A stretch of 64,000 nt of DNA. Origin: Raillietiella orientalis. Its lineage: Eukaryota. The position numbers and the translations under genes are program-made. Shown here one piece after another: positions 20,155 through 57,614 of the stretch. The first letter of the stretch is position 1. Each line of letters begins with the position of its first letter. Under the pieces are notes generated by a model. It saw nothing but the letters and a program-made list of their open reading frames with translations. It was not told where the DNA came from and made no database searches. The stretch lies in the NCBI GenBank assembly GCA_036172245.1, contig JAYWIR010000128.1, positions 1 to 64,000 on the forward strand, read 5' to 3'.

Positions 20155-20229
20155 ATGAGAGTGAGAATGTAAATATTGTATTTTTATAGAAAAATAAACT
20201 TACCCCACCCCTTGTGGGACTTGGGGAAA

Positions 20230-24714: not shown

Positions 24715-24729
24715 GCATAAGGCGTTCGA

Positions 24730-30182: not shown

Positions 30183-30843
30183 GCAGTTCGTGCCTCCTAA
30201 AGCGCTACTACTCCTCGGTGTACGCTAGGGAGCCGACTGAACGCAGTCTCTCGGAGCTGCTTCTGCCGCCGGACTCCCTTGCGGTCAACAAAGAGCAACT
30301 TGCGGCTCTCGACTTGCTCTTTACGTCGAAAGAAGTGTCTTCCGCCATAGCGGGCCTCAATAAGCGCAAGGCGCCAGGTGGGGATGGTCTGCCTGCGAAA
30401 TTCTTCCACTGCTTCGCGGCGAAACTTATCCCCCTGGTGCTAGGGCTTTCTGCGTTGATGCGAGAGATGGGCAGTGTTCCGTCTCCGTTCCGCTCAGCAA
30501 GGGTGTGTCTCTTGCCAAAAGGAGGAGACATGCGCCGTTTCAGCAACTGGCGTACGATCACCTTGGTAAATGCGGACGTCAAGCTGCTCTCCAGGCTCTG
30601 GGTCGCGCGCCTAGGCAGTATCACTTGATCCGTGGTAAGTCCGGAGCAGTCCTACGCTGTTCCTGGGCGGTCCATGGACGGGTAACTGTTCTTCGCGCGC
30701 ACGTGGCACCATCTGCAACGCTGCGTGGCGCACGACAGCCAGGTAACCGCGTCTTCGGCTGCCGAGGCTAGACGTCACTGCATCCGACCTGAAGAAGCAC
30801 CGGGTGCTTAGACGGTCGTGGTGGATCTCCGCAGGGCGTTCGA
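30181..30843 (+). mobile_element. LINE ORF2 fragment (linker to RT DLRRAFD); probable left half of the element resuming at 55458
   Basis: KRYYSS, KAPGGDG, NWRTITL and VVDLRRAFD. Ends in CGCAGGGCGTTCGA, matching CGCAAGGCGGTCGA at 55459. Confidence 0.85.
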
Positions 30844-33326
30844 TTTTCACCCGGATTTTGCCGGGGCATTTATTCTAAAATAAACATTCACAAAGACGTG
30901 CAGTGGCTGGACCATTGCTCCAGCCACGCACGAACAAACACAGAGCCTGCCGGTTCACCGGTTCGCAGACCAATACGGTCCACCACGGCAGCAGGGGGAA
31001 CAGGGAAAAACAAAAAACAAGACAAAAAAAGAAAGGAAAAGATCGGAAAGTAAGGGAAAAGATCATAGTTGCTGGTGGGGCCGGTGCATCCTTTGCAGGA
31101 TGCCGGCAAGCTCTTGCTGGATGACTGGATCCAGGTGAGGCCATCGCGACGCCCTCCTCAGGAATTGGGACGCTGGCTGGATGGCACCCTGGTCGTGTGG
31201 GCCTCCCGTAGCCTTACTCAAGGCGGAGACGGTCCCGCGAAGACAGCACAGGGCTCCTAACGAGGCCGCTGGCCAGAGGGCATCGGCAACGAAGAGGGCT
31301 TTTAGTACTTCCCTGGGGTTGCCGCAGGGGATACCGATGGCCGCGGCAAAGCGGGACCAAAGGGGCCGGAGTGCAACACAATCCACTAGCAGGTGGGGGA
31401 AGGACTCCTGTTCCCCACACCTGACGCAATTGGAATCCACCGCTCCCCAGGTCCAGTGGTAACGGCGGGCGTTGCAAATTAGTCCCCAGTGCTGCAAAAG
31501 GAATGCCGACTCCTGCCAATTTAAGGAAAGGGTGGAGGTCTTCATTAGTACCGGAAGCCACTTCAAACGTTCAATGGGAACGTCGAACAGCGCGCCGAAG
31601 CGCAGAAGTCCATGGGGAGGCGTACTCGGGGTGACAGCATCGGTCAGCTGACCCGTCTTCCTCTCTCTCTGCTTCTTCTCCTTTCCGGAGATTGTTATTG
31701 TAACCGCCCAATTCGCCGCAACATCGCTGTCCAGATCTTCCATCATGGAAGGCAGCGCAGCAGCGAGAGGGTTTTTTTCTGACCACGCTCTCTTCTTAGG
31801 ATCCTCCAGGATCTCACAAAGCGTGCAACTTCGATAACCACCAAACAGGAACCTTCGTTCCTGTTAAGAGCGTTGCATGCCGAACTGTCCCCACGTGCGA
31901 ACGGTTTCCTGCAATCAGGCACTACCGTTCGCTGGGCGACAGGGGATCAATCCATGGTTTCTAGGTGTCAGCGCAGATACCCTCCGTAGCTGAAGTCCAC
32001 ATAGATTGACGCGACGACGGACTGCAAGACCGGACGTGAGTCCCGTCTTCATGGTGGCTTGCTGAAAGAGGAGACGTGCAGGGACTCACCAGCAGGTGCC
32101 CCATAACTCCGGCACTATGGCCAATAATCGGAACTGGAGCTGAAGCTCCAGCCGCTCAATGTCAGGAGGCCGAGACCGCCGTCCCGACGCGGAGCGCACA
32201 AGTCCTTTAAAGGGACTCGGGTCCTACCGTTGCCCCAAAGAGCGATACGGAGAAGGTTCTTTGTCCGCTTTTCAATCCTCTCTGTGAGAAGGCAAACAAA
32301 AAGCAGGGGGCGAAGGAGAGGAGCCGCGAACGTGCTCCAACCCGCGGCCCGTTCATGTAGCAAAAACCTGCCGCCTCGTAACAGGCGTCCCGTTCAAGCA
32401 GCAAAAACCTGATGTCTCGTAACGGGCTGATTGCCTTCTGTACTTTCTGAAGGCAGCCGGATCACGCTTCCGCAGGGGAGTAGTCCTTCAACGGCACACA
32501 AAGACACTTGGAGTACCTCACCGTGGGAATCCCCAAGCGGACCCAGTCCTGCTGCCCTACCCACGCAGCACCAACTGGCATCACGGACGACTTCTCACTG
32601 TTCAGCTGAAGCCCGGTTCCCCGATTAGGCAGATCGAAGAACTCCTCGATCGCCAAAGACGGGTTGGACATAGGGAGCAGCAGCGGAAGGTCGTCCGCAT
32701 ATGCTGAAAGCGCAGGCGTTCCGGCGCATTCATGCGGCAGGTGCGCCAGAGTTTCCCTGTACGCTTTCAGTACCAACTGAAAGTAGGTACTGAAGAACAA
32801 GGGGCTCAGGCTGTCTCCTTGCCGGATCCCACGTCGCGCCGGCACGCCGTGAACAGTACGCCCGCTGAAAGTAACATTGATTTGCGCATCGCGCCAGCTC
32901 GAGCGCAGATAGGCCAATAATGAGGCCGGCAGCCCAAGCGTTCCAAAAGCTCCAGCAGGAGATTCTGGTCGACGCTGTCGAATGCTTTACGCAAGTCGAC
33001 TGCGACCGCAAGGGCTCCCTCCCCCACCTGAACATCCGACCCCTTGCCAGCGCACGCAAAGGAATTCCGGCTGCGCACCAAGCCCCTTTCTTGTTGGAGC
33101 ACTAGCCAGGTGGAAGCGTGAAACAGGTTCGCCTCCTTGCTCCGCCCGGGAACAGCGTATGTCTGTTCCGGAAAGATGAAGGCGTTTGCAACATGCCCAG
33201 ACGCTCTGCCCAAACCTTAGCTATCAACCTGGCGTCCAAATATACTATTGTGAAGGGTCGCAAGTTGTTCATGATCCTCAGGTCACCTCCCTTAGGGTGG
33301 AGCCGCTCCTTTGCAGCGCGAAACGA
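30844..33326 (-). mobile_element. LINE subfamily D, 3' half (RT, zinc finger, 3' UTR)
   Basis: DLRKAFD, GIRQGDSLSP, AYADDL and CVRCGE...HLLVDC. AATAAA and CCCGG/CCGGG hairpin at 30850-30874. Confidence 0.9.
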
Positions 33327-33332
33327 AACGAA

Positions 33333-36300
33333 AACACAGCTCGATGGAAAACTTTCATTTATAATTCGGACAATGGCTACCATGAACACAACACAGACTC
33401 TAAAGCGCCCTGCGATAATTAAATGTGGGACTCTTCTTAATCATCCTCTGTAAGCAGAAAATTGGAAGGATGTGCGGCTCCATTTCGCTAGTATGCCACT
33501 CGCTGCAAATGGATGCTTCATGAAGAAGCGCAAAAGTGCAATGGTGAAATGTCCTCATTTCGAACTGATTACAAACCAGCAACAGATGTAAATTTGGACC
33601 ACATAATGGATCAGATCGACGGAAAATATTCCCTTACTAATTCCGAAACTGTTTCCCTAGAGAACAACACACAGTCCAAAGTGTCGAGCTCTAAGGAAAT
33701 ATAAATTCTTTTTAATCATCCTCTGAAACCAGGAAATTGAAAGTATGTGCGGCTCCATGTCGCTAGTATGCCACTCGCTGCAAATGAATGCTACCTGAAG
33801 AAGCGAAAAAGTGCAATGGGTGAAATGTCCTCATTTCGAATTGATTACAAACCAACAAAAGGTGTAAATTTGAAACACATACTCAATTAGATCGAAGGAA
33901 AACATTCCATTTCAAATTCCGACACAGGTTACCATAAAAAATACACAGAGTTCAAATTGTCCAGCTCTAATAAAATATCGGATTGTTTTTAATCATCCTC
34001 TGAAACCAGGAAATTGCAAGGATGTGCGGTGATCCATGACGGTAGTTTGCCTTTTGCTGCAAATAAATGCTTCCTGAAGAAGCGCAAAATGCAATGCTGA
34101 ACTCTCCTCATTCCGAATTGATTACAAGCCAGCAAAAGATGGAAATTTGGAACAAATAATAAATAAATGGGAAGGAAAACATTCCTTTTATAATTCAAAC
34201 ACTGGTTCCCATAAGGACAACACAGAGTCCAAAGTGTGCCGCTTTGATAAACAATCGAATTCTTCTTAATCATCCAATGAAACCAGGAAATTAAAAGGAT
34301 GTGCGGCTCCATATCGTAAATTTGCCACTCACTCAAAACGGATCCTTCTTAAAGATTCTTGAAAGTGCAATAATGAAATCCCCTCATTCCGAATTGATTA
34401 GAAACCAGAAAAAGATATAAATTTGGAACAAATAATGAATAAATACGAAGGAAAAGATTCCCTTTCTAAGTGCGACACTGGTTCCCATGAGGACAACACA
34501 GAGTCTAAAGTAGCACGGTCTAATGAACTATCAAATTCTTCTCAATCATCCTATGAAACCAGGAAATTGGTAAGATGTGCGGCTCTAGACCGTTAATTCC
34601 ACTCACTGCAAATGGATGCTTCTTGAAGGAGTTAAAAAGTGCAATGGTGAAATCTCCTCGTTCCGAATTGAATACAAACCAGCAAAAGATGTAAATTTGG
34701 GAAAAATAATGAATAAATGCGAAGGAAAAAATTCCCTTTCTAATTCCGACACTGGTTACCATAAAAACAACACAGAGTCCAAAGTGCCCCGCTGTAATGA
34801 AATATCGGAATCTTCTTAATCATCCAATGAAACCAGGAAAGTGGAACGATGTGCGGCTCCATTTCGTGAATTTGCCACTCACTACAAATGCATGCTTCTT
34901 GAAAAGCCCCAAAAGTACAATGGTGAAATTGATCATTTCGAATTGATTACAAACCAGCAAGAGATTTTAATTTATACCACATACTGAATCACATCATAGG
35001 AAAACATTTTCTTTTTAATTTCGACATTTGTTAACATGCAAACAACACAGAGTCCAAGGTGCTTCGCGCTAATGAAATGTCGGACTCTTATTTATCATCC
35101 TCTGAAACCAGGAAATTGTAAGGATGTGCGGCTCCTTGTCATAAACATGCCACTCGTAGCAAATCGTTTCTCCTTGAAGAACCGAAAACTGCAATGGTGA
35201 AACAAGCTCATTTAGAATTGAATACAAACTAGGAAAAGATGCAAATTTGGACCACACACTCAATCAGATCGAAGGAATACATTCTCTTTCTAATTACGAC
35301 ACAGGCTACCATGAAAACCACACAGGATCCAAAGTGCCCTACTTTAATAAACTGTCGGACTCTTCTCAATCATCCTCTGAAACCAGGAAACTGTTACGAT
35401 GTGAGGCTCCATGTCGTGAATATGCAATCACTGCAAATGGATGCTTCTTGAAGAAGCGGAACAGCGCAATGGATAAACGTCCTCATTTGGAATGGATTAC
35501 AAACCAGAAAATCATGTAAATTTGGACCACATACTGAATCACATCATAGGAATACATTCCCCTTCTAATTCCGACACTGGTAACTATGAAAACAACATAG
35601 AGTCCAAAGTGCCCCGCGCTATTGAAAAGTCGGTCTCTACTTAATCATCCTCTGAAACCAGGAAATTGTTACGACGTGAGGATCCATGTCGTGAATTTGC
35701 CACTCCTTGCAAATGGAAGCTTCTTGAAGAAGCGCAACAGTTGAATGGTGAAACGTCCTCATTTCGAATTGATTACAAACCAGCAAAAGATGTGAATTTG
35801 GACCACATACAAAATCAGATCAGAGGAAAACTTTCATCTCCAATTCGGAAACTCGCTACCATGAAAACAACACAGTGTCCAAAGTGTCCTCCTCTAATAA
35901 ACAATCTGATTCTTCTTAATCATCCAATCAAACCAGGAAACTGGAATCAAGTTCGGCTCCATGTCGTGAATTTGCCACTCACGGCAATTGAATGCTTCTT
36001 AAAGAAGCTGAAAACTGCAATGGTGAAATCTGCTCATTTCGAATTGATTACATACTAGAAAAAAATTGTAATTTGGACCACATACTGAATCAAATCGAAG
36101 GAAAACTTTCCCTTTCTAGTTTCGACACTGGTGGCTATGAGAAAACACAGAGTCCTAAGTGCTCTGCTCTAATGAATTATGGCAATCTTCTTCTTCATCC
36201 AATGAAACCCGGAAATTGGTACGATGTGACGCTACATCTCCTGAATTTGCCACTCACTCAAAGTGGATGCTTTTTGAAAAGGCGCAAAAGTGCAATGGTG

Positions 36301-39300
36301 AAATCTCCTCATTGCTAATTGATTACAATCCAGCAAAAGATGTAAACTTGTGCCACATTCTGTTGCAGATTGAAGGAAAACATTCCCTTTCTAATACCGA
36401 CACTGGTTACCATGAACACAACACCGAGTCCAAAGTGCCCCGTGCTATTAAAATGTCGGACACTGCTTAATAATTATCTAAAAAAAGAAAATTGGACGAA
36501 TGTGCAACTCCATGTAGTGGATTTACCACTCACCGTAAATAAATGCTTCTCGAAGAATCGCAAAAGTTCAATGGTGACATGTCCTCATTGTGAATTGATT
36601 ACAAACCAGCAAAAGATGTAAACTTGTACCACATACTGTTGCAGATTGAAGGAAAACGTTCCGTTTTAAATTCCAAAACTGGTTACCCTGAAAACAACAC
36701 AGAGTCCAAAGTGCCCTGCTCTAATGAACTATCTGATTCTTCTTAATCATCCAATCAAACCAGCAAACTGGAATTAAGTGCGGCTTCATGTCGTGAAATT
36801 GCCACTCACTATAATTGAATGCTTCTTGAAGAAGCTGAAAAGCGCAATGGTGTAATCTGCTCATTTCGAATTGATTACATACTAGAAAAAGATGTAATTT
36901 GGACCACATACTGAATCACATCATAGGAAAAAATTCCCCTCCTAATTCCGACACTCGTTAATATGAAAACAACACAGAGTCCAAAGGGCCCCGCGCTATT
37001 GAAATGTCGCACTCTTCTTAATCATCCAATCAAACCAGGAAACTGGAATCAAGTTCGGCTCCATATCGTGAATTTGCCGCTTACTGCAATTGGATGCTTC
37101 TTGAAGAAGCTGAAAAGTGCATTGTTGAAATCTGCTCATTTCGAATTGACTACATACTAGAAAAAGATGTAATTTGGATCACATACTGAATCAAATCGAT
37201 GGAAAACTTTCCGTTTCTAGTTCCGACACTGGTGGCCATGAGAAAAACACAGAGTCGAAAGTGCTTTGCACTAATAAATTATCGCAATCTTCTTCATCAT
37301 CCAATGAAACCCGGAAATTGGTACGATGTGACGCTACATGTCCTGAATTTGCCACTCACTCAAAGTGGATGCTTTTTGAAGCGGCGCAAAAGTGCAATGG
37401 TGAAATCTCCTCATTGCGAATTGATTACAAACCAGCAAAAGATGTAACCTTGTACAACATTCTGTTGCAGATTGAAGGAAAACATTCCTTTTATAATACC
37501 GACACTGGTTACCATGAAAACAACACAGTGTCCAAACTGCTCTGCGCTAATGAAATGACCGACTCTTATTCATCATCTTCTGATACCAGCAAACTGGAAG
37601 GATGTGCGGCTCCATGTCGTGAATATCCACTCGATGCAAATGGATTCTTCTTGCAGAACCGCAAAAGTGCAATGGTGAAATTGCTCATTTCGAATTGATT
37701 ACAAACAAGCAGAAGATGTAAATTTCGACCACATAATGAATAAGATCGAAGGCAAACATTATCTTTCTACTTCCGACACCTGTTATAATCGAAACAACAC
37801 AGAGTCCAAAGTGCCCCGCGCTATTTAAATGTCCGACTCTTCTTATCCGTTCTCTTAAACCAGGATGTTGGTAGGACGTGAGGCTGAAGGTAGTGAATTT
37901 GCCACTCACTGCACATGGATGCTTCTTGAAGATCCGCAAAAGTGCGATGGTAAAATTGCTCATTCCGAATTGATTACAAACTAGAAAAGATGTAAATTTG
38001 AACCATATGATCAATCAGATCGAAGTTAGACATTCCCTTTCTAATTCCGACACTAGTAATTATTAAAACAGCACAGAGTCCAGAGTGCCCCACGCTATTG
38101 AAACATAGTACTCTTCTCAAGCGTTCTCTTAAACCAGGATGTTGGTATGATGTGCGGCTGAATGTAGTGAATTTGCCACTCACTGTAAGTGGATGATTTT
38201 TAAAGAAGCGCAAAAGTGCAATGGTGAAATGTCCTCATTGCGTATTGATTACAAACCTGCAGAAGATTTGAATCTGGACCATATACCGTGTCAGATTGAA
38301 GGAGAACATTCCCTTCCTCATTCCGACACTCGTTACCATGTAAAAAACAGGGAGTACAAAGTGCCCTGCTCTAATGAACTATGGGAATCTTCTCAATCAT
38401 CCAATGAAACCAGGAAATAATTACGATGTGCGCCTCCATGTCGTGGATATGCGACTCACTGCACATGGATTCTTCTTGAAGAAGCGCAAAAGTGTAATGG
38501 TGAAATTTCCTCATTTCCAATTGATTACAAGCCAGCCAAAGATGTAAATTCGTACCATATTCTCAATCAGATCGAAGGAAAACATTCCCTTTCTAATACC
38601 GACACTGGTTACCATGAACACAACACAGAGTTTAAAGTGCCCCGCGCTATTAAAATGTAGGACACTTCTTAATAATTATCTCAATAAAGAAAATTGCACG
38701 GATGTGCAACTCCATGTAGTGGATTTGCCACTCACCGTAAATAAATGCTTCTTGAAGAACCGCCAAAGTGCAATGGTGAAATGTCCTCATTGTGAAATGA
38801 TTACAAACCAGCAAAAGATGTAAGCTTGTACCACATACTGTTGCAGATTGAAGGAAAACGTTCCGTTTTTAATTCCGAACCTGGTTACCATCAAAAAACA
38901 CAGAGTGCAAAGTGCCCTGCTCTAATGAACTAACTGATTCTTCTTAATCATCCAATGAAACCAAGAAATTGGTACGATGTGCGGCTCCATCTCGTGAATA
39001 TGCCTCTCAGCGCAAATGGGTGCTTCATGAAGTACCGCAAAATTGCAATGGTGAAATCCGCTCATTTCGAATTGATTACAAACTTGCGAAAGATATAAAT
39101 TGAGTCCACATACTAATTCAGATAGTAGAAAAACATTTCTTTTCTAATTTCCACACTGGTTAGCATGAATTCAACACACAGCGCAAAGTACGCTGCTATA
39201 ATGAACCATCGGAATCTTCTTAGTCATTCAATGAATCCAGGAAATTGTTACGATGTGCGGCTCCATGACGTCGATAGGCCACTCAAACCAAATGGATTCT

Positions 39301-42300
39301 TCTTAAAGAAGCTGAAAAGCACTATGCTGAAATCTGCTCATTTCGAATTGATTACATACCATCAAAACATGTGAATTTGGCCCACACACTCAATAACATC
39401 AAAGGAAGTCATTCCCTTTCTAGTTAGGACACTGGTTACCATGAAAACAACACAGTGTTCAACGTGTCCCGCGCTCATGATCTATCGGATTCTTCTTAAT
39501 CTTCCTTTGAAATCTGGAAATTGGTACGACCAGCGGCTCTAGGTCGTGGATTTGCAATTCACTGCAAATGGATGCTTCTTCAAGAAGCTTTAAAGTGCAA
39601 TGGTGAAATTGCCCAATTCGAAGTGATTACAAACTAGGAAAAGGTGTAAATTTGGACCACATACTGTATCAGATCGAATGAAAACATTCCCTTTCTAATA
39701 CCGACACTGGTTACCATGAAAACAACAGAGTGTCCAAAGTTCTGCGCGCTAATGAAATGACGGACTCTTATTCATCATCCTCTGGTACCAGGAAATTGGA
39801 AGGATGTGCGGCTCCAAGTCGTGAATATGCCACTCGATGCAAATGGATTCTTCTTGAAGAACCGCAAAAGTGCAATGGTGAAATTGCTCATTCCGAATTT
39901 ATTACAAACAAGCAGAAGATGTAAATTTCGACCACATAATGAATAAGATCGAAGGCAAACATTATCCTTCTACTTCCTACACCTGTTATAATCGAAACAA
40001 CACAGAGTGGAAAGTGCCCCGCGCTATTTAAATGTCCGACTTCTTAATCGTTCTCTTTAACCAGGTTGTTGGTAAAATGTGAGGCTGAAGGTAGTGAATT
40101 TGCCACTCACTGCTCATGGATGCTTCTTGAAGAAGCTGAAAAGTGCAATGGTGAAATCTGCTCATTTCGAATTGATTACATACTAGAAAAAGATGTAATT
40201 TGGTTCACATACTGGATCAAATCGAAGGAAAACTTTCCCTTACTAGTTCCGACACTGGTAGCCATGAAAAAAACACAGAGTCCAAAGTGCTCTGCTCTGA
40301 TGAATCATCGCAATCTTCTTCATCATCCAATGAAACCCGGAAATTGGTACGATCTGACGCTTCATGTCCTGAATTTGCCACTCACTCAAAGTGGATGCTT
40401 TTTGAAGAGCTGCAAAAGTGCAATGGTGAAATATCCTCATTGCAAATCGATTACAAACCAGCAAAAGATGTAAGCTTGTATTACATACTGTTGCAGATTG
40501 AAGGAAAACGTTCCGTTTTTAATTCCGAAACTGGTTACCATGAAAACAACACAGAGTCCAAAGTGCCCTGCTCTAATGAACTATCTGATTCTTCTTAATC
40601 ATCCAATGAAACCAGGAAATTGTAATAAAGAGCGGCTCCATGTCGTGAATTACCCAATCACTGCAAATTGTTGCTTCTTGAAGAAACCCAAAAGTGCAAT
40701 GGCATAATTGCTCATTTCGAATTGATTTGAAACTAGGAAAAGATTTGAATTTGGACCAGATACTGAATCAGGTCGAAGGAAAATATTCTTTTTCTACTTC
40801 CGACACTGGTTACCATGAAAACCACACACAGTCGAAAGTGCTCTGCTCGAATGAACTATCGGAATCTTCTTAATCATCCAATGAAACCAAGAAATCGGTA
40901 CGATGTGCGGCTCCATCTCGTGAATATGCCTCTCACCTCAAATGTGTGCTTCATGAAGTACCGCAAAATTGCAATGGTGAAATCTGCTCATTTCGAGTTG
41001 ATTACAAACTAGCGAAAGATGTAAATTGAGTCCACATACTTAATCAGATAGAAGGAAAACATTTCCTTTCTAATTTCGACACTGGGTAGCATGAATTCAA
41101 CACATAGTCCATAGTACTCTGCTATAATGAACCATCGGAATCTTCTTAGTCATCCAATGAAACCAGGAAATTGGTACGATGTGCGACTCCATCTCGTGGA
41201 TATGCAAATCTCTGCAAATGGATGTTTCTTGAAGAAGCTGAAAGGTGCAATGGTTCAATCTGCTCATTTCGAATTGACTGCAAACTAGCAAAAGATGTAA
41301 ATCAGGACCACATACAGAATCATCGAAGGAAAACATTCCCTTTGTAATTGTAACACTCGTTACCATGGAATCAACACAGATTCCAAAGTACCCTGCTCTA
41401 ATGGACTATAGGAATCTTCTTAATCATCCTATGAAACCAGGAAATTTCCAGGATGTCCGGTGATCCATGACGGCAGCTTGCGTCTCGATGCAATTGGAAG
41501 CCTGGTTAAGTATTGCAAAATACAATGATGGGATCTGCCTTTTCTAGATTGATTATAAACCAGCAAAAGATGTAAATTTGAAACTCATAAAGAATAAAAA
41601 CCAAGGAAAAGATTCCCTCTCTACTACCGACACTGGTTCCCAAGAAAACAACACAGAGTCCAAAGTGCCCTGCTGTAGTGAATTATCGGATTCTCCTTAA
41701 AAATTCTATGAAACCAGGAAAAGGGTACGATGGGCGGCTCCATGTTGTGGATATGCCACTCACTGCAACTAGAGTCTTCTTGAAGATTCGCAAAAGTGCA
41801 ATGGTGATATCTGCTCATTTCGAATTTATAACAACCTTGCAAAAGCCATAAATTTGGACCACATACTGAATCAGATCGATGGAAAACATTCTCTTTCTAA
41901 TTCCGACACTGGTTTCCATGAGAACAATACAGCGTACAAAGTTCCCCGAGCTATTAAAATTTAAGACTGTTCTTAATCGATCTCTGAAAGCAGGAAGTTG
42001 GTAGGATGTGCGCCTCCATGTCGTGAGCTCACCACTCACGGCAAAAGGTTGTTTCTTGAAGAAACGCAAAAGTGCAATGGTGAAATGTCTTCATTTCGAA
42101 TTGATTACAAATCAGCAAAAGATGTAAATTTGGACCACACTATTAATCAGATCGAAGGAATACATTCCTTATCTAATTCCGACCCTGGTTACCATGTGAA
42201 AAGCAAAGAGTCCAAAGTGCCCCGCGCTATTGAAATGTCGGGCTCTCCTTCATCATTCTCTGAAACCAGGATGTTGGTAGGATGTGCGGCTGAATGTAGT

Positions 42301-43468
42301 GAATTTACCACTCACCGCAAATCGATGCTTCTTAAAGATGCGCAAAAGTGAAATGGTGAAATCTGCTAATTTCGAATTGATTACAAACCAGCAGAAGATG
42401 TAAATTTGGACCACATAATGAACAAGATGGAAGACAAACATATTCTTTCACATGCTGACACTGGTTACAGTAAAAACGACACAGAGTCCAAAGTGCCCCG
42501 CTCTAATGAAATATCGTATTCTGATTAATTAACTTCTGAAACCAAAAAATTGCCAAGATGTTCGGTGATCCATGACGGTAGCTTGCCTCTCGTTCCAAAT
42601 GGATGCCTGTTGAAGTAGCGAAAAAAACAATGCTGAAATCTCCTCATTCCAAATTGATTACAAACCAGCAAAAGATGTTAAATTGGAACTCATAAAGAAT
42701 AAAAACGAACGAAAACATTCCCTTTCTTTTACCGACACTGGTTCTCATATAAACAACACAGAGTCTAAAGTGCCCCTCACTATTGAAATGTCGGACTCCT
42801 CTTAATCGTTCTTGTAAACCAGGTGGTTGTTAGGATGTGCAGCTGAATGTAGTCAATTTGCCAATCACTGCAAATCGAGTCTTTTTGAAGAAACGCAAAA
42901 GTGCAATGGTGAAATGATCTCATTTCGAATTGATTACAAGCCAGGAAAAGATACAAATTTGAACCATATTCTCAATCAGATCGAAGGAAAACATTACCTT
43001 TCGAATTCCGACACTGGTTACCATGAAAACAACACAGAGTCCAAAGTGGCCTACTCTAATAAACTATCGGATTCTTCTTAATCATCCTATGAAACCTGGA
43101 AATTTGTAGGATGTGCGGCTCCATGTCGTGAATTTGCAACTCACTGTAAATGGATGTTTCTTTTTGAAGCGCAAAAGTGCAATGGTAAAATGTCCTCATT
43201 TCGAAATGATTACGAACCTGCAAAAGATGTAAATTTGTACCACACTCTCAATCACATCGAAGGAAAACATTTTTATTATAATTCCGACAATGGTTACTAT
43301 GTAAACAACAGAAAGTCCATAGTGCTCCGCGCTATTGAAATGTCGGATTCTTCATAATCATTGTCTGAAACCAGGGTGTTGGTAGGATGTGCAACTCCAT
43401 GTCCTTAATTTGCCACTCACTGCAAATGGATGCTTCTTGAATAAGCGCAAAAGTGCGATGGTGAAATC
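33333..43468. repeat. AT-rich tandem satellite, ~276-bp monomer, ~37 diverged copies
   Basis: TTAATCATCCTCTGAAACCAGGAAATTG-like motif recurs about every 275-277 bp (e.g. 33437, 33712, 33989, 34266, 35641). Hand-built consensus is 276 bp. Confidence 0.95.
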
Positions 43469-44138: not shown

Positions 44139-44153
44139 GCATAAGGCGTTCGA

Positions 44154-47100: not shown

Positions 47101-48523
47101 TCGCAGAACTCCTGGACCGACCGCTTAAAGCGGTGCCAATCCTGGAGTTTTCGCAGTCTCAAGCCCCGTATGAACGTGTGAAGATGTTGCGCCGCGTCCG
47201 GGAGCTTCAGTTAGTCCCATGGGAGACGCCACGCTGACGAGGGGGGGCCCCTGTCACGCGGATGGTTCTCGAGAACTAGCAGGCGATGGTCGGACAGCTC
47301 GCACGGTAACTTGGCGCGCCTGCCCACGCGAGGGCACAGGTGCTCCTCAAGAAACACGTGGTCGATGCACTTCCATCTCCTGTGCACTAGCCAACAAATT
47401 ACAGGTGTGCACCGCCATGCACACCTTTTGGACCAGGTCACGCTCGGGATTCTATCCATCTGGTTTCAGGCGAACGTTGAAATCGCCGCTACCAGATGGG
47501 CATTCCTCACGCCTGCTTTGGTCAGCCAGTCGCGCCGGGGGGCCAGAAAAAACTCTTTCCTCGCTCTCCTGTTCATCAGGTCACCGCCACTCGGTGCGTA
47601 CACGTTCGTGACCATCAGATCGATCGGCTCGGACCACCTGAGGGTCAGCTGGTTGACACGACCGTGATCGTGGAACCGCACGTCCCGAGCCGCGGCCTCG
47701 ACGGCTGGCCGAAGCAGGTAGGCGACACCGCAACTTTTGGGTATCCAACACCTATACAATAGCCACCCTCCGGAGATCCGTTCGATCTCTTGCGCTTCTT
47801 CTACAGAGATCACGTGGATCTCCTGCAACAGCTCAAGGTCGTAGGACTCCAGAAGGGCTGCCATGTCTCGTCTCCTGCCGGCGTCTGTCATGCCGTTCAC
47901 GTTCCAAACAGCGATGCGCAGACGACGGCGGGAGAAGCTTCCCGGCATTACTGCTGGGAAGATTAAGGGGTGGGGGGCATGCCTCTTGCGAGGCGGACGG
48001 GTTGTCCATGGGGGTTTCGGCCTTCTCAGGCACCTGAGGCACCTGTTCGGCCTCCACCCCCTTATCCCTTCCTTGTCCGTACGTGGGAGTCTCTCGGGCG
48101 ACGGGTCCCGAGAGTTTCCCACGCTCATGGCACCCTCGCTTGCGGAAGCCATCTCTTCCCCTTCGACGGGGGAGACGAGCTTCCTTGGCTTTGTGGAATT
48201 ACGTCCAGCCTTCTTGCGCGGTGCCGTGGAAACGGAGGCTGCGCTTCCGGCCTCCACCTCGGGGTCGGAAGTGGGAGACTAATGAGGGGAGGCCGGACGC
48301 CTTATGGCCTTCTTGCCAGCCTTGGAGGGTTCTGGTTGCAAAGTTGCTGCCAGCTACTCCGCGGCTCGCGCGAAGACTACGTCATCGATGGTGGTGTCGA
48401 TGACGGACGCCGCTGCCTGCTGGCTCCCCTCGCTGTTGACAGAGTCAACAGAGGGGAGATCGTCGGTAGCGGCGAGTTGTTTTTCGCAGCGGTCGGGAAT
48501 ACGCTCGACGACAACAGTGCATT
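44154..48523 (-). mobile_element. LINE subfamily D, 3' part of a full-length copy (continues at 54302-55457)
   Basis: EN (AVWNVNG, LLQEIH, NVYAP, IDH, LSDH), 542-aa RT ORF 45534-47162, zinc finger, AATAAA 44178-44183. Confidence 0.9.
44350..47948 (-). pseudogene. ORF2 (EN-RT-zinc finger) of D element, frameshifted
   Basis: Consecutive ORF pieces with EN and RT motifs. ATG lies in TAATG at 47946-47950. Confidence 0.85.
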
Positions 48524-48601
48524 GACGTGTTCTGTGTTGCTCCTCGAGCGTGATTCCTTTCCGTCTTCTTGTGTGTGGTGTGCCCGAGTGCGTCCACTGG
48601 G

Positions 48602-50548
48602 ATGTCCACGGAGGCATTGCAGCAAAAGATAGATGTGAACGCTGCCACTGGCAGTAGAGACTCTACTCCAGATGTCCGGTCCGCCTCTGATTCTTGTGTC
48701 TCGTCACCGGCGAGAAGCTTCGCCGCCGTCGTCAAGGCGGCGGCAGCCAACGGAGCACCGCCCGACGAACCAGAGCTGCAGGCATATGCTGCCCATGGCT
48801 ACAAGCTTGCGCTCTGCTATCAGGTGAGTGCTTCTATCTCCGACGGGGTCGGAGAAAATTTGTGGGACGAGCTTTTGCGCGTCGCGGTCCGACAGGACGA
48901 CCTCCTGGCCGTCATGCCGTTTAACGCGCTCGGACACTGGGAGGTGCACTGCAAAGAAACATCCCTAGTCCAGCGCCTTCTCCGCACCCCGCTAAATATC
49001 CGCGGGAATGAGGTCGTCCCGTCGGCCATGGACCAGTCGTTCGTGGTCCGATTATACGCCGTCCAGGTGGACACGCCCGATCGCGTGCTCGTCGCTGCAC
49101 TAAGTGCATTCGCCACGGTGCACGCGCTGTGGAGAGCAGAAAATCCGATCAAAAGGATTGCATCTCTCCACAGCGAACTTGCCATGGCGCGTGTCACCAT
49201 GGCGAATAGGAGGCAAATGCCTCCGCACTTGCAGGTGGGCTATGCGATCGTCCACCTTGAATTTGCCGGTCAGCGACCGGCTTGCAGCATTTGCGGTACA
49301 GAGGGCCACCGTCCGTAGACGTGTCCTTCACGCAACTGCCGCTATTGTAAACAGCTCGGCCACTCCATCAAAGAGTGCGCCGAGCAGAAGAGAAAGCGGC
49401 AGGCGAAAAGCCGCCAACAATCGAACTTGTCCGCGCCAAAAAGATCCCCCGTTGTGCCACGGGAGAAATCGGGCGCGAAGGGAAGGGCATCTTCGAGTGG
49501 AGGTTCCGCGAAAAAGGACGCGGTTGCTTCAGGGAAGCCACCATCCTAGACAAACGCGCAGACGGGAAAGATGCCACGTCGCCCTGTGGGCAAATCGCCC
49601 CCTTCGAAGCAGCCTAAGAGTGCGGGCACGCACTCAATCAAGGCTGCTGAACCGTCCGCGTCCGCTAGCGCGTCCAGCGGAGCACACGGGAAACCGTGCG
49701 CGGGTACCGCCGGAGCTGCCTCTGAACGGCAGTCTCCTCCTACGGCGGTGGAGATCACGTCTTCCACGCCGAAGGCACTAGCAGCGAAGGCTGCAATAGC
49801 GCCTCGCGGGACGACGGCAATGACCGCCTTTTCGCCCGCATCGGCTAAGGAGCAGGTGCAGTGCGTAAGGGGGACGGAGCCGTCTCCCGTCGCGAGCGCG
49901 AAACGTGAGCCGGCATCTCCGGCCAAACAATTGAGGGAGGCGTCGGCCTCCCAGGAGGGCGTCCCCGACGCGGGCTGGACTCGAGTCTCCAGGACGCTCA
50001 CAAAGGGGAAGAAGAAGGTTGACCATTCAATATTCCCCATCCTTAAGGTAGGTGGGAGGCAAAAGAGAAGCACGCCGAAGAAGGTGCGTACCTGGGTACG
50101 CACCTTCTTCGGCTGCGTTCTCTGTCTCCGTCCCTTCGCGCGAGAGATCGGCTGCGGAAGCAAAGCTCCGGAAGCTGCGTTGGCGACTGCGACGACCCCC
50201 GCGCGGGCAGGGCAAGCCTCCACCTGCCGAAACAAAAAGAGACTGGCAAAACGCCAGTCTCGCGCCAGGCACTCCGACTCCGAGGTGGAGTCCGAGTGCA
50301 AACAAATGGAGCGCGCATCCCGGGGTAAGCCGGAAGCGCGCCGGGCTAAAGTGCGGAAGCACGAGCCTGTTGCCGGAGGCGGTTCCGGCTTTTGCACGGA
50401 GACCGAGGCGATGATCCTCGGCTCCCAGGACTCAGCTGGGCGCGATGTGGCGGCGAACGGGAGCAATTTCGCTTCCCAATCCGCTCTCCTACCAGCTGAC
50501 TTGTCGCCCCACGGGGCGAGGAGCACGCCGTCATGTCCGCAGCAGTGA
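48602..50548 (+). pseudogene. ORF1 of A element (RRM-like core, two CCHC knuckles, low-complexity C-terminus), two in-frame stops
   Basis: ORFs 48569-49318 and 49571-50548 share a frame. Knuckles CSICGTEGHRP*TC and CRYCKQLGHSIKEC. Stops at 49316 and 49547. Confidence 0.85.
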
Positions 50549-53500
50549 TGCGTGGACTCGCGTCCGCTCGTCGTGTCAGCGTGGCCTGTTGGAATGTCAA
50601 CGGGCTACGTGATGCTGACAAAAGGCGGACGGTAGCCAACGCTTTGCGCGCGTTCGATCTGGTGCTGCTGGAGGAGATACATAGCATCTCCGTACGGCAG
50701 GCATCGGATCTGGAAGAGCGCGCGGGCGGGACGCTACACTGGCGGCAAGGCTACGCTCACACGTGCGGAGTCGCGTTCCTCGTCCGAGGCAGGGTGGCGG
50801 AGGCGGTGCGGAACGTTTGTTTCGAGGAGGAAGGTCGTGTGGGCCAACTTGTCCTCAAGTGGTCCGAATCGATAGAACTGGTCGTTACGAACATCGACGC
50901 GCCGAGCGGCGGCCGGCATTACGCCTAGCGACTTTCATTCCTGGGTGGCCTGCGCAGCCGCTGGCTCGCTGACTCCGGCCCTAACGTGGCGCGCTGCCTT
51001 GCAGGAGACTTCAACGTCTACACGCTAACAGAGGAGAGATGCCGCTTGAGGGAGAAGCAACTGGTGATCGAGGTATGCGCGTCCGTGCGCGTGCATAACT
51101 TGCTTGCTGTTGAGCCCGGGATGGGGAGATCGCCGGACCATGCGTTCCTCGATGAACACCTGCTCTCACGAGTAGGTCTTACAGGGCGCCTGCTGTCCGC
51201 TATTTCGGAACATCCTGGACTGGAGTTCGAGCTCCTCCCGCCTGGCGAAGGGCCTCCGATGAATGTCTGGAGGTTGCCGGCCGACTGGCTTAGCAATTCG
51301 GAAGCGGCGGAGCATCTCCGCCAACACCTCCGGGGCTTCGCCATCTGTGAACTCGAGGACTGGGACGATCTGAAAAGATCGGTCCGCGAGTTCTGCTGCC
51401 GGTTTCCCTTGCACCTGCTTCCCCGCGGCTTCGGGGAGGGTGTCGCGAACAGCAGATCCTATTTGCAGGCGCGTACCATTTCCCGATGCGCGGACGTCCG
51501 GCGTCTGGCGGAGTATAAGGCGAGGGCCGAGCGCCAGGTTTGGCAGTCTGGAGGGGCTTGTCTGCTCGATGACGCTAGCCAGGAATGCTCGACTGCAGCC
51601 AAAGTACACCGCGTAGTCAAGCGCTACTACTCCTCGTTGTACGCGGCGGAGCCCACGGAACGCAGTCTCTCCGAGCTGCTTCTTCCGACGGGTAACCCTG
51701 CTATCGACGAGGAGGAACGCGCCAGATTGGTTTGGCCCTTCACGGCGGAAGAAGTATCTTCCTCCATAGCGGGCCTGAAGAGGCGTAAGGCGCTGGGGAA
51801 GGATGGCCTGCAAGCGGAATTCTTTCAGTGCTTCGCGGCAGAGCTCGTACCCCTGATGCTAAGCCTTTCCTCGCTGATGCGTGAGACGGGAGATGTTCCC
51901 GCTTCTTTCCGCTCAGCAAAGGTGCGGCTCCTGCCAAAAGGCCGTGATTTGCGCCACCTCAGCAACTGGAGTCCGATCACATTGGTGAATTCGGACGTCA
52001 AGTTGTTCTCCAGGCTAGGGGTCGCGCGGTCGTCCTTGGTAAGTCCGGAGCAGACGTATGCTGTTCCGGGGCGGTCCATGGACGCGAATCTCTTCTTCGC
52101 GCAAACATGGTTCGAGTTGCAGCAGCGCGTGGCGCAGCAGAGCCAGGCAGCCGAATTCGCCGCTGCTAAAGAAAAGCGGCGGTGTTCAAGGCACGATGGA
52201 ACGCCGGGAGCCTTAGCGGTCGCAGTCGATCTCTGCAAAACGTTCGACAGCGTAAACCAGGACCTCCTTCTGGAGCTTCTGGGACGCCTAGGGCTCCGGA
52301 CGCACCTCATCGCCTACTTGCGCTCCTGCTGGCGCCACGCGTTATTCTGTATCTCTTTTAGCGGGCGTTACGTTTACGGTGTTCCTATACAGCGGGGTAT
52401 CTGGCAGGGAGACAGCTTAATCCCCCTGCTATTCAGCATCTTCTTTGAGTTGGTGCTGAGGGCGTACAGGCTGACGCTGGCCAACCTGCCGAGCTCCTGC
52501 CCGGGAACACCGGCCGCGGCCGCCTATGCTGACGACCTTCTCCTGCTGCTGCCCATGTCCACCCCGGCGTCCAGGCTCGAGGACTTCTTCGAGATCATTC
52601 GTCGGGGAGCGGGCCTGGGCGTGAACAGGACGAAATCAACCGTTGTACTGGTTGGCTCTACGTGGGAGAGGCAGTCCGACTGGATCCGCCTGGGGATCCC
52701 CACGGGCAGGTGCTTGAAGTACCTCGGCGTTCCCTTGGGCGCATTTTGACCAGCAGAAGCGTTATCGGACTGCCTTCACAAGGCCGAGGATGCTCTGGGC
52801 TTGTTCCAAGGCGGCAGGTTTCTCCTGTCGGAACGGGCCTTCGTGTGGACCATTTTCGTTGCCCCCCTCCTCCGTCCCCTCTATTTTGTTTGTCCCCCTC
52901 CCTACTCGGCTAAGCGCCGGGCGCAACGCCTGTTGGGTAACGCTCTGTGGGGACCGGCGAGGTCCAGGATACGCCTGAAGGACTTGGCGGCTCCTCGGGG
53001 CGATGCAGGATTGGGCATCCTGACGCTGGAGCGGATCGGACTCCTAGTGCAGTTCCGCATGCTGGCACTTTGTGCGCAGCTCTGGACTACTCCCTGGTGT
53101 GCTCCAGCGCGGCTGCTGCTGCGGCGCAGCACGGGTGGCGACGGACTACGTTCGTTGTATCTGCGCACGGAGCGCGCCCAGAGAGGATTCGGGTTCCCTT
53201 TGAATCAGCTCTCCTCGCTTCTGGGGAAGCATTCGTGGATCTCCTGCCGGCCGACGAATTTCAACGTCTGGATTCAGTAAGCCTTATCGTCCTGGGCAGC
53301 GCAACAGGATGTGTCCCGTTTGGAACTCCGTTGCGTGAAACTTTCCCCATACTGTCCAGTGGGGGAGGTGCTGGAAGACCAGGACCAGTGGAAACGCCTA
53401 GCCGCTACGCCACTCGCCGAAGCACTGTGTGCACTGATGGTGCGAAATGACAGTGACCTGCTGGCGAGGTGGGAGATCACTTGCGAAATCGCAGGCGAAA

Positions 53501-54096
53501 CCCGACTGCTGGGCGGCTGGCGGACTTGCGAAATGGCAGACGCTGCCACACCTCGCATTCTCGCAAAAGGGCTTCTCCGGCGAAGTGAGCTCCTCGGGGT
53601 GCCCCCTGATGAACTTGTGGTTCCTTCTGCGTGTTTGGACGCGACTCTCTTCCCCCTTCGGTGGAAGCAGGACGCTTTTCTGCTGGTGCATTGGGGTTTG
53701 TACTGCATCCAGGAGGCGCACCTGATTTCCGGGGGAGTGGCGTCCCCGAACTGTGACAAATGCGGAGCGGTGGCATCGCTTCCGCATCTGCTGTTTGAGT
53801 GCGGTGCCCTCCAGGAGCTGTGGCGGCGGCTGTGTTCTGCGCTCCTGCACCCTGGACACACCGCACTGGATTGGATGCGCCGCTTCTACACGCGTGGCGG
53901 ACCTTCTCTTGGAGCGGTCGTCGCAATCATCTGCTGCGTCCGCGCCATTATCAGGGCCCGCCACGTATTGCAGATGCGAGCGTTCCCAACATCGGTCCCC
54001 GACACCGCAGCCTGCAACCTGCAAATGGCTGCCGGCTGGCCACATCTTGGAGCAGAAGTGATGACGGAGATCGGCGGCATTCACCGCCGGTTCTGA
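50548..54096 (+). pseudogene. ORF2 of A element (APE endonuclease, reverse transcriptase, zinc finger); one frame of ~1180 codons with three nonsense mutations
   Basis: ORFs starting 50533, 50986, 52801 and 53311 share a frame. Motifs WNVNG, GDFN, DLCKTFD, QGDSLIPLLF, AYADDL, KYLGV and CDKCG...HLLFEC. Confidence 0.92.
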
Positions 54097-54301
54097 GAAT
54101 AGGAACGGTCAGACTGTATACCCCTGTCCTCGCCCTTCCACCCAGTTTATTTATTTATTGTCCCACTTCCTCCCGTTCCGAACTCTCAGTGTGCCCGGAC
54201 TGCGCTCCGGGAAATCTACTCCCCATTTTCTGTTTCCGTTGCCTGGGAACACAGTTCTGAGTTGATATTTTTATAAACGTCCCGCCGCAACCGGGTAATA
54301 A

Positions 54302-55457
54302 ATGATAACGCTGAATTCTTTAATTTCCTCGGTTTCCTGCTCTTTTTTCTGGAGGTACGCGAGCTTTTTCTCCATCCTCCTCTCTTTCTTTAATTTTTTG
54401 GCCGTAGCCACCTGCCACCCAGTCTCTTGGCTAGTTCCATCGACTTGTTCGGCGTTGTTCGCCGGGGACTCGGGTGCGGATTGGGCTTTGGGCGCGGGTG
54501 GCACAGCCTCCGCGGCACCTTTCGCCACCAGCCTTTTCTGCAGAATGCGGGCACGTTTTTTAAGGTTTCTCTTTAAAACCACCCGCACTGCTGCTTTAGG
54601 GCACACCTCAATCGTGTGTGTATCATGGTGCCGTATACTTGGCACTGCACATTGGGACACCTCTTTTTGAGGTGGCCCGACGTATTGCAGAAGCCACAGT
54701 ATTTCGGTTTTCCCACTTACCAGAGGTCGACGGTTTCGCCTTCGACCATCAGTTTGTGGAGTAGAGTGCAGCCCTCCCGAACGGTCAGGCGCGCGGCCGT
54801 GAGGCCGCGTTGCATCCCCGTGTAGTCCTCGAAAGGACTCACTTTCGTCCACTGCGCGTGGACCGTTCCGTATTCCTCCAACGCGGCGCGAACCTGTTAC
54901 TTGCGCATCCGCGCAGTAACACCTACCAGGTAATCCACCATGCTACGGTCCTCCGTAATAGGGAGGAGCAATTGCGTACCCATCATTACGGGGGTTTTAT
55001 GCAGTCGTTGTGCCAGCTCTGCGTGTTTGCAGATCAACTCTACGTACTGGCTTCCGCTACGAATGGTCATAGCGCTGAGCTCCTCCTCTTTCACATCGAG
55101 AGCGCGCATGCCCTTCGAGAAGGCGCGCGCGCTCTATAAAGAATATAAATTGCCTACCTTGTAGCACAATGAGGGGTTGTACCCGTCCTCTACATTGGCC
55201 GACAATTCCGCCGCGGCTGCAGGCGATGGCGCCGACACAACGACGCCCCACGCCCGCGCCTCAGCGGGGACCGATTCTGTGGGGGCGGATGCCCCCACCT
55301 CCATCGCCTCTGGCGACGACGTTGCCGCCGCCCCCTGGCCATCCCTGGTGGTCGCGTCAGGCATCGCTGCCTGATCGAGCACCGAACCACACGACGCTAG
55401 CACTAAAGGAAACTTCCTGGCACAAGGAGCACCGAGAAAACACGTCCACCCTGGAGC
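54302..55457 (-). mobile_element. LINE subfamily D, 5' part (5' end + ORF1)
   Basis: ORF1 homologous to 23521-24714. GGACGTGTTTT at 55437-55447. Followed by the KAFD-site TSD. Confidence 0.85.
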
Positions 55458-57614
55458 ACGCAAGGCGGTCGACTGCGTAGACCAGGATCTCCTCCTGGAG
55501 CTCCTGGGTCGCATGGGCTTCCCACCCTCCCTACTCTCCTACCTGCGCTCCTGCTGGCGCTACGCTATCGTTAATATCCGATTCTCATATCAACAGGTGT
55601 ACGGCGTGCCGGTGCGGCGGGGCATCCGGCAGGGTGACAGCCCCAGCCCCCTGCTCTTCAGCATCTACTTTGAGTTGGTGCTGAGAGCATACAGGGAGAC
55701 TTTGGCAACCCTGCCGAGCTCGTGTCCCGGCACGCCTGCCGTGTCGGCCTATGCCGACGTTCTTCTGCTTCTGCTTCCCGGGTCCACCCCGGCATCGGCG
55801 CTCGAGGATTTCTTCGAGTTGCTATACCGTCGGACAGGCCTCCAGGTAAACAGGACGAAATCGTCGACGCTTCTCAGCGACTCGACGAGGGCCCGACGGT
55901 CGGACTGGATCCGCTTGGGGATCCTCACGGGCAGGTACATCAAGTACCTTGGCGTTCCGTTGGGGGACTTGTGCCCTGCAGAAGCCTGGTCCAACCGTCT
56001 ACAAAAGGTGGAGCTGGCGATCGGCCCGTTCCGGGACGGCAAGTTTCACTTGCAGGAACGGGCCACGGTATGGAACGCGTTTGCGGCCCCCCTCCTCCGC
56101 CTTCTACTTTTTGTGTGCCCTACACCTTACCAAATCAGGACACGGACTAGGGGCCTTATACGGAAAGCCCTCTGGGGCAACCGGAGGCCTCGCGTCCGGC
56201 TCAAAGACTTGTGCGCTCCACGCAGCGACGGTGGACTTGGTCTCCTGACGTTGAAGCGCATGGAGCGACAGCTCCAATTCAGAAAACTTGCCCTTGTGGC
56301 AAAGTTTTGGACAGCACCCTGGTGTGCACCGCAAAGACTCCTTGCTCACAGGGCAACCGGCTGCTTCGAATTGACTTCCATCCTGGTAGCCAACGAACGC
56401 AGCCTAAACCATTGTGGTTATCAGCTGCGGGATTTGGTTGCCCTTCTGAGAGACAACCCTTGGATCTCCTGCATCCCAGCGGACTGGACTACCTGGCTTT
56501 AGGAGACCGTTTCCGCATGGGCGAAGATCTATGACACCAGCGATGAGGACTTCTCCTGCCTCCGCAGAAGGAGGCACGCTGGTCAGCCACTCCAGGAGAT
56601 CGTTTCCAACCCACGGAAACTTCTGTGGGCTTCCTTCACCCCCCTTGCCCCAGTACTGCCCTCCCTAATGAAAGTTCGGGACAGCCAACAGGAGGCATCG
56701 TGGGAAGTGTCCTGCCTCATTGGAGGCAGGAAAAAATCACTGAAGGCGTGGACGCCGAGGGAACTAGCAGACGCTAGTACTCCGAGTGTCCCGCCGAACG
56801 GAATTTTACGCTGTGGCGCCCTGCTCGGTATACCTCCGGAGTAGGTGAAGTGGCCCCCAGCGTCTTGGGACAAGGGTACCCTTCCCCTGCAGTGGCAGGA
56901 GACGGCGTTGCTTCTGCTCCACTGGGGACTTTTAAGCAGAGCACGCCTGTCTCGCTGGACAACGGGGAATGTGGATGCTAGTTGTGCAGAGTGCGGGAAA
57001 AGGGAGACCTTCCCTCACTTGATTCTATAGTGTGTTGCCGTCCGCAAATTGTGGGACAGACTCTCTTCGATCCTCAACATTCCGGAGGGTGACCCGAAAA
57101 ATTTAGTCAGACGCCTCCTGACGCGAGACGGCTTGCCAGCCTCCGGGAGCGTAGCAGTGCTCTGCTGCATACGCGGTATCCTGGAGAAGTGGACCGCGTC
57201 TAGAAGAGGAAGGACCAGCCGGAATGCCATCCACTGGGCAGCGATCTCCTTGGAGAAAGCGTGCCGTTGGCGCCGACTTCAAAAACATTTGCCGGCACTT
57301 GTTCGCATCCGAAACCGGATGCAAAGGCCTGCTCACGGCGCACCGCGATCCCCTCCTCCCCTCCCCCTCCCCGAAAAACATTGCCCTCCAGACGTTTTTC
57401 TTTTTTTTGGTGTTTGTTTTCTTTTATTTTTCCCGTCCTGGCGCCAGTGAAGGACCTTTTCGGCCTCCGGGTCGGTAAGGACAAGTGCTACTGAACTTCT
57501 GAACTGGACTTGTGACGTCGTAAAAAGGAAAATTTTAACAACATAGAGTTTATTACAAAATTTTGTAATGTCAAAATTTTAGTAATAAAAGCCCCGGCTT
57601 ACCCGGGTGAAAAA
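55458..57614 (+). mobile_element. LINE subfamily E, 3' half starting at the RT KAFD motif
   Basis: RKAVDCVDQ, GIRQGD, AYADV, KYLGV and CAECGKRETFPHL. AATAAA 57584-57589 and hairpin 57593-57607. Confidence 0.9.

Follow-up and report, generated by a model that had tools for sequence, protein, structure and literature searches.

Most long interspersed nuclear elements (LINEs) with a specific target come from the early-branched, Tx1 and R1 groups; transposons are among the targets named in the sections of the survey drawn on here, which also place Utopia in tandem in U2 genes (PMC4640811). The Tx1 clade is described as found in animals, and the portion of that account used here gives a range of transposon targets: Tx1 lies in the piggyBac-type Tx1D, Tx1-Mar in Mariner-N4_AMi, Tx1-9_AMi ~300 bp into Harbinger, and Tx1-8_Crp and Tx1-4_AMi in long terminal repeat (LTR) retrotransposons (PMC4494074). 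R1 elements form tandems in which the copies are separated by the duplicated ribosomal DNA (rDNA) target and which arise, in the extract cited, by double insertion (PMC5932611). Clusters of Zepp in C-169 have a GC content of 61% in a genome of 53% GC, and the excerpted description places no satellite near them and names no target sequence (PMC3446292). Insertion into other transposons and tandem stacking by double insertion are thus both described (Tx1 clade, R1, Zepp), and the general type, a sequence-specific LINE with an apurinic/apyrimidinic endonuclease (APE) that has both habits, is already known. The analysis presented here concerns 64,000 nucleotides of the genome of Raillietiella orientalis (GenBank assembly GCA_036172245.1, contig JAYWIR010000128.1, positions 1 to 64,000 of the forward strand; hereafter the window), where copies of a LINE designated D have probably inserted repeatedly at one and the same set of codons, those of the K-A-F-D motif in the reverse transcriptase (RT) gene of other LINEs. 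All element names used below (D1-D4, E, E3, H1, H2, c0, F, F2, M, G and N) are labels of this analysis.

D is likened to Tx1 and R1 by its insertion habit and not by RT phylogeny. With the Tx1 clade it shares its relatedness to L1, an endonuclease that is APE-type by prediction, and insertion at one position of another multicopy transposon, and D and SINE-like (short interspersed nuclear element) double insertions next to each other are a further likeness; it differs in that its target is the ORF2 (second open reading frame) of another LINE, at the codons of the RT catalytic motif, and in that it ends in a stem-loop followed by GTGAAAA. The likeness to R1 lies in the precise site, the target duplication and the head-to-tail copies separated only by the duplicated target, whereas R1 is found in an rRNA gene (28S) with 33 nt between tandem copies and D in a transposon gene with 11-14 nt. 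An earlier note on this DNA (hereafter the original prediction) had called tandem copies separated by target-site duplications typical of R1, and this agrees with the extract on R1 cited above (PMC5932611). Zepp and ZeppL, which are L1-type elements of green algae, are alike in cluster architecture and GC richness only, and the window holds a satellite, unlike the Zepp clusters of C-169 as the excerpt describes them. Homing endonuclease genes, inteins and group I and group II introns sit in catalytic motifs of conserved genes, and so share with D the use of the least mutable stretch as a landing site; their machinery is entirely different, and the comparison is an analogy only. Open-access full text yielded no LINE that targets the catalytic-motif codons of another LINE's RT.

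The window was mapped using the translated ORF2 at 50500-54093 (in-frame stops written as X) as a tblastn query, which gave a strand and a residue range for each piece. The first host gene, H1, is split into two halves on the plus strand that lie 24,615 bp apart. H1-left (30194-30843; query residues ~372-583, from a tblastn match over 30194-30844 and from translation across the junction) contains one in-frame stop and ends in ...VVVDLRRAFD, its last 14 bases being the first copy of the target or duplicated motif, T (T1, 30830-30843, plus strand; CGCAGGGCGTTCGA). H1-right (55459-57614; query residues 580-1151, from a tblastn match over 55462-57183, plus the 3' untranslated region, UTR) opens with the third copy of the 14-mer (T3, 55459-55472, plus strand; CGCAAGGCGGTCGA), which runs in frame into the host as RKAVDCVDQ, and it closes with a hairpin and GTGAAAA at 57614. 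The two halves overlap at query residues 580-583, which are exactly the duplicated motif, an arrangement that would be expected of a target-site duplication. The aspartate of this K-A-F-D motif we take to be catalytic.

From left to right the top-level order is H1-left, T, D1, T, D2 (with the LINE E nested inside it), T and H1-right, and both D copies lie on the minus strand. TTTTCAC, the reverse complement of the D 3' end, follows directly after T1 at 30844, where the 3' part of D1 begins (30844-33335; ORF2 residues ~466-1198, 3' UTR and a 3' end with hairpin and GTGAAAA); the 5' part of D1 (43474-44139) is the last 666 bp of the D 5' region and stops at the same end base as the other D 5' ends. 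The second copy of the motif (T2, 44140-44153, plus strand; 14-mer CATAAGGCGTTCGA) lies between D1 and D2, so that GCATAAGGCGTTCGA at 44139-44153 is followed by TTTTCAC at 44154. D2 spans 44154-55458 in interrupted form and amounts to 5,511 bp without E: its 3' portion (44154-48523) holds the 3' UTR, ORF2 (47984-44395) and ~540 bp upstream of ORF2, and its 5' portion (54303-55458) the 5' UTR and an ORF1-like region. The ORF2 of D2, which includes endonuclease (EN) and RT regions and carries frameshifts, covers query residues 5-1198. The original prediction had one host RT stopping at 30830-30843 and resuming at 55459-55472, split at the motif over 24.6 kb by two head-to-tail minus-strand D copies separated only by the motif (44139-44153). 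The strings stand at those positions, the tblastn halves and the measured distance agree with them and the D-T-D-T order holds; the content of the interval was only partly as described, since alongside the D copies it includes the nested LINE E and a satellite, and D1 is in two pieces.

A second stack lies upstream in another host, H2. Here the 5' portion of a D copy with a full-length 5' end (D3, 23522-24715, minus strand) is followed by T4 (24716-24729, plus strand), the same 14-mer CATAAGGCGTTCGA that is found between D1 and D2, and then by D4 (24730-27453, minus strand); GCATAAGGCGTTCGA accordingly recurs at 24715-24729, with TTTTCAC at 24730. The 5' truncation of D4 falls near ORF2 residue 384, and the host begins immediately beyond D4 (27454-29553, plus strand) with T5 (GAGGCTTTCGA, 27454-27464) and H2-right, which comprises ORF2 residues 580-1198 and the 3' end; the string (G)AGGCTTTCGA at 27454-27464 continues as AFDCIDQ. 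The last bases of D4 (...CTCAGGAGG) still match D2 and host homology begins within AGG, so that the 5' junction of D4 with its target shows a microhomology (GGAGG) of 3-5 bases. This is of the kind seen at 5'-truncated LINE junctions, and it marks D4 as an independent target-primed insertion. The original prediction of a second D-D-host stack of the same pattern, in a different host and with a truncated 5' end, was borne out in all three respects: the strings stand at 24715-24729 and 27454-27464, H1-right and H2-right are only 58.7% identical in DNA sequence, and D4 stops inside ORF2 at T.

The sample amounts to four D copies, divided between two hosts, and comes from a single 64-kb window made up of nested repeats. 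All seven D ends adjoin T in the same register and in antisense orientation: the three 3' ends (30844, 44154 and 24730), the three full-length 5' ends (55458, 44139 and 24715) and the one truncated 5' end (27453). T is duplicated over 11-14 bp around D1, D2 and D4. When the 11-mer AAGGCGTTCGA was searched for on both strands of the window with up to two mismatches, 23 matches were found against a shuffle mean of 22.6, a rate of ~1.8e-4 per position, and given this rate the exact register of seven D ends with T excludes chance. The best reading of this evidence is true site specificity of D for T within the window, to which we assign a probability of roughly three in four. The claim of the original prediction that D targets the RT K-A-F-D site of other LINEs is thereby supported as far as this one window goes, on the strength of the register, the orientation, the two hosts and the independent insertion suggested by D4.

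Several observations weigh against this reading, the first being that only four D copies, two hosts and a single window are involved. Segmental duplication also occurs in the region. An old duplicate (1-909 versus 7866-10455, 81-85% identity, the first copy with a 1.65-kb deletion) means that shared junctions can here be identical by descent, and a recent inverted one of 5.5 kb (18052-23542 versus 64000-58477, 96.6% identity) takes in parts of E3, an E copy, and of the D3 5' region. T2 and T4 both read CAT at the position of the host's CGC, and the two D 5' pieces that adjoin them are the most similar such pair (87.6%); part of the D-T-D junction could thus be shared by descent, or the first three bases could belong to the D end, in which case the duplication is 11 bp long. 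It is on these features that an alternative explanation draws, in which one or two D copies inserted by chance, with no target preference, and were then copied by old segmental duplication, deletion and gene conversion; a duplicated composite of D with E inside it would also explain why E and E3 occupy the same site in D2 and D3. The hosts do not behave in this way. Over 2,077 aligned columns H1-right and H2-right share 58.7% identity (74% within the RT part and ~50% beyond it), as against 80-83% for the D and E copies, and since the hosts are far less alike than the D copies they must be different elements and not duplicates of the same age. Pairs of D copies are 79.8-82.7% identical (3' parts 80-83%, 5' parts 80-88%), with D1 and D2 at 82.7% and pairs from different stacks at 79.8-81.4%; copies within a stack are therefore no closer than copies from different stacks, which shows that the stacks are not recent local duplications. 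D3 has a full-length 5' end and so is not an unequal-crossover copy of the truncated D4, whilst D4, which ends inside ORF2 exactly at T and with microhomology, is not a deletion derivative of a D2-like copy, as random deletion would not give such an end. H1-left, T and D1 form a third, different context, and the identity between D2 and D4 across T falls to 73% in the first 300 columns. Copying by descent is thus an improbable source of the pattern, and at least three independent integrations, most simply four, all in the same orientation, appear to have taken place at T.

On the same opposing side stand the unoccupied sites, as eight of the ten RT copies that keep the region carry no insertion there. 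These are c0 (site sequence AAAGCTTTCGA), F (degenerate), G and its recent duplicate (AAGGCTTTCGA, at 18204, and AAGGCTTTTGA), E (AAAACGTTCGA), D1 (AAAGCATTCGA), and D2 and D4 (GAAGCATTCGA); the occupied copies are both H-type, with AAGGCG or GAGGCT. The site of D itself (GAAGCATTCGA or AAAGCATTCGA) is unhit in all three D copies in which it is seen. The G site is only one mismatch from T (AAGGCTTTCGA, 18204) yet empty, from which it follows that recognition extends beyond the 11-mer or that the elements were not contemporaries. The copies are moreover all old, ~80% alike and broken by stops or frameshifts, with no sign of present activity. D1 lacks ~2.4 kb of its middle, in place of which stands the satellite (33341-43468; 36.8 copies of a 276-bp unit, 10.1 kb, ~39% GC); the simplest reading is that its two pieces are one copy broken by the satellite, although they may be two different copies. 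Lastly, the assembly may be in error in so repetitive a region, and in the extreme case the stack would be an artefact in which LINE copies were wrongly joined through the short RT motif that they share. The joined copies are, however, only ~80% identical and would not be collapsed by assemblers, the junctions show element termini (the 3' stem-loop and the constant 5' end) and not joins of RT to RT, and the same architecture occurs twice with differing details, all of which makes an artefact a very remote prospect.

If D is specific for T, its insertion can be envisaged as follows. D would integrate, antisense, into the RT gene of the H-type LINE lineage at the R-K-A-F-D codons CGCAAGGCGTTCGA, those of the first catalytic aspartate motif. 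Its predicted endonuclease would nick the sense strand of the host immediately behind ...TTCGA (nick order and nick positions are as we infer them), and the freed 3' OH would prime reverse transcription of the D RNA; the other strand would be cut 11-14 bp upstream, so that the new copy would be flanked by a duplicate of the motif at either end. Every insertion would in this manner regenerate two targets, and later D copies would come to adjoin earlier ones in head-to-tail stacks. The specificity would presumably reside in the endonuclease, and the same pattern would presumably be met across the genome, with TCGAACGCC... expected after D 3' ends and ...GGCGTTCGA before D 5' ends. It has been learnt from work on R1 and R2 that read-through target sequence can anneal to the nicked site, and the integration of D could likewise be guided by homology, either through pairing of D complementary DNA (cDNA) or RNA with a related RT sequence or through annealing of read-through 3' target sequence to the nick. 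TCGAACGCC always lies downstream of the D copies, so that the target would be included in read-through transcripts; the RT of D itself contains a related motif (GAAGCATTCGA or AAAGCATTCGA); and the 5' junction of D4 makes use of microhomology. D is, however, antisense to its host, which prevents in-register pairing between the RT sequence of D and the motif of the host, and the 3' junction, which falls at exactly the same base in three copies, is in keeping with a defined nick. Guidance by homology in place of a specific nuclease is accordingly judged quite unlikely, although annealing and nuclease specificity may act together.

D is predicted to be a 5.5-kb non-LTR retrotransposon that encodes APE and RT and has an L1-like C-terminal region. 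The Pfam family RVT_1 is found in D2 (E-value 6.7e-14), D4 (1.3e-18) and D1 (3e-07), and the solved structure nearest to the D RT is human L1 ORF2p (4.9e-30), with R2 at 1.5e-10. The endonuclease is a prediction: Exo_endo_phos is found in the nested relative E (E-value 9.3e-07), to whose ORF2 D2 aligns from residue 5, and the N-terminal open reading frame (ORF) of D2 has no Pfam match and reaches an E-value of only 0.04 to L1 endonuclease structures. In the C-terminal region zf-RVT appears weakly (0.0074 in D1 and 0.036 in D4, both below the Pfam cut-off), and no Pfam family exceeded the cut-off in 19 candidate ORF1 and terminal ORFs, the ORF1-like region of D included. On its own strand the D 3' end reads CCCGG-CAAAAT-CCGGG, then TGAAAA; a poly(A) tail is not present at this end, where the stem-loop and GTGAAAA provide only four A residues, which is more in keeping with a LINE that has a defined recognition structure at its 3' end than with L1 and its poly(A). 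A 3' stem-loop of the form CCCGG-N5-6-CCGGG, six or seven bases from the end, is common to all families of the window, and a 5-bp hairpin was predicted in all six 3' ends that were folded, with Z-scores of -0.9 to -1.45 that are not significant against shuffles. Marks of target-primed insertion are seen in the 11-14-bp duplication (D1, D2 and D4) and in the 5' truncation with microhomology (D4). At the opposite end, a GGACGTG(T/C)TTT-like motif is found at the own-strand 5' ends of E, D and N (48524-48545, 55420-55458 and 21670-21700), and upstream of it D and N have ~12 more bases than E. Searches for relatives returned one close protein, P0001, which is 64% identical over 99% of the D4 query and has an intact motif but no context. 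Metagenome contigs gave 47 related loci, all of them distant (20-41% identity), genome contigs a single distant locus and viral contigs none, and the protein atlas contained generic RVT_1 clusters only.

The original prediction had proposed that the two halves of H1, once joined, should take a single phylogenetic position. In amino-acid sequence H1-left is closest to E (64% over 206 positions), followed by c0 (58%), F (55%), P0001 (51%) and D2 (47%), and the RT part of H1-right to P0001 (72%), followed by M (70%), E (68%), D2 (65%), F (55%) and c0 (49%); the shift in rank between the left and right regions is also shown by E, which is a full-length element. In maximum-likelihood (ML) trees neither half joins the D clade, and both belong with the E/c0/F/H group. 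The right tree places H1-right as sister to M (100/99), an element that has no left half, and the left tree is unresolved. Identities and trees thus agree with a single gene without settling the matter. A better argument that the halves are one gene is structural: they lie on the same strand, that residues 583 and 580 meet at the motif and that only D material, with what D contains, lies between them. Beyond the 3' end of H1 (57614), the adjoining segment 57615-58167 shows a weak inverted likeness (64%) to the D 5' region and could be where another plus-strand LINE, arranged head to tail with H1, has its 5' region.

The LINE nested in D2, E (48524-54302, plus strand), is full-length at 5,779 bp, lies antisense to D2 and is bounded by a 15-bp target duplication of its own (CGACAACAGTGCATT at 48509-48523 and TGATAACGCTGAATT at 54303-54317). 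It has an ORF1-like region at ~48554-49778 and an ORF2 with EN and RT (50500-54093) in one frame with three stops, and its 3' stem-loop ends in GGGTAATAAA. A D-like 5' fragment elsewhere in the window (3809-5544, minus strand) is uninterrupted and retains the empty E site (CGACGATGCTGCATT, 4545-4559). A different reading was considered, in which the stretch taken for the D 5' part (52751-55458, together with its counterparts) would instead be the tail end of a LINE on the plus strand, with D and E meeting tail to tail at T. The grounds for it were that 51584-53983 is collinear with 928-3339, and that the plus frame scored 421 bits versus 271, with frame +1 the best. It was rejected because E ends at 54302 with its own stem-loop and 15-bp target duplication, and because the 1.16 kb at 54303-55458 are contiguous with the D region upstream of ORF2 in 3809-5544. 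E3 (21700-23521, plus strand), an internally deleted E copy that is 83.2% identical to E, occupies in D3 (23522-23536) the same position that E occupies in D2. Either E is itself site-specific for the D 5' region, or a composite of D carrying E was copied or mobilized as a unit.

Nested LINE copies make up almost the whole window, and the GC content is 53-61% throughout except for a block of 39% GC at ~33.3-43.5 kb. Pfam matches are to RVT_1 in numerous ORFs of either strand and to Exo_endo_phos in a single ORF. At each nested junction that was inspected (3815, 7896, 493, 10014, 30844, 44154, 24730 and 48524-54302) the inserted LINE is antisense to the LINE that it interrupts, the nestings being D in H, N in an E-like RT, E in D, M/Q in F2, and c0 beside a D fragment. 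The satellite, whose units are ~76% identical, resembles nothing else in the window; it sits inside a D copy in a GC-rich, LINE-only region and may be centromere-related.

A further family, N, shows a comparable habit. At 483-504 and 10004-10025, E-like RT fragments end in ...CGCTGATGCG (S-L-M-R, near ORF2 residue 461), and next to them stands the 3' end of this minus-strand family in reverse complement (stem-loop and GTTCAAAA). At 21694-21710, CGCTGATGCG and the remainder of the RT, that of E3, come after an N-like 5' end at 21700; the intact N site is found at 51872-51881. These junctions imply a 10-bp target duplication. Those at 483-504 and 10004-10025 belong to one old segmental duplicate, so that two events at most are represented. 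Taken together with the sites of D at the K-A-F-D codons, of N at CGCTGATGCG ~120 codons upstream, and of E at CGACRAYGCWGCATT in the D 5' region, they raise the possibility, which we hold only tentatively and regard as falling short of an even chance, that a LINE-only island has assembled itself through a guild of L1-like families, each with an exact antisense site in another family. Few events underlie this wider form of the reading. Given the adjoining 276-bp satellite, such an island would possibly be centromeric. If true, it would amount to a network of LINE-on-LINE hyperparasitism, in which the least mutable codons of competitors serve as safe havens and the competitors are disabled.

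The safe landing sites known for sequence-specific LINEs are rRNA genes, small RNA genes, microsatellites, telomeres, DNA transposons and LTR elements, and the RT catalytic motif of another LINE would add a new class of target to these. A short, defined target combined with a predicted APE-type nuclease could also interest engineers of site-specific retrotransposon insertion. As long as the host element remains active, mutation cannot readily remove the motif, and each hit inactivates a competitor, so that D would provide direct evidence that transposon lineages are in conflict with one another as well as with their host. The growth of LINE-only nested clusters, such as those of green-algal centromeres, would likewise gain a mechanism at the level of sequence.

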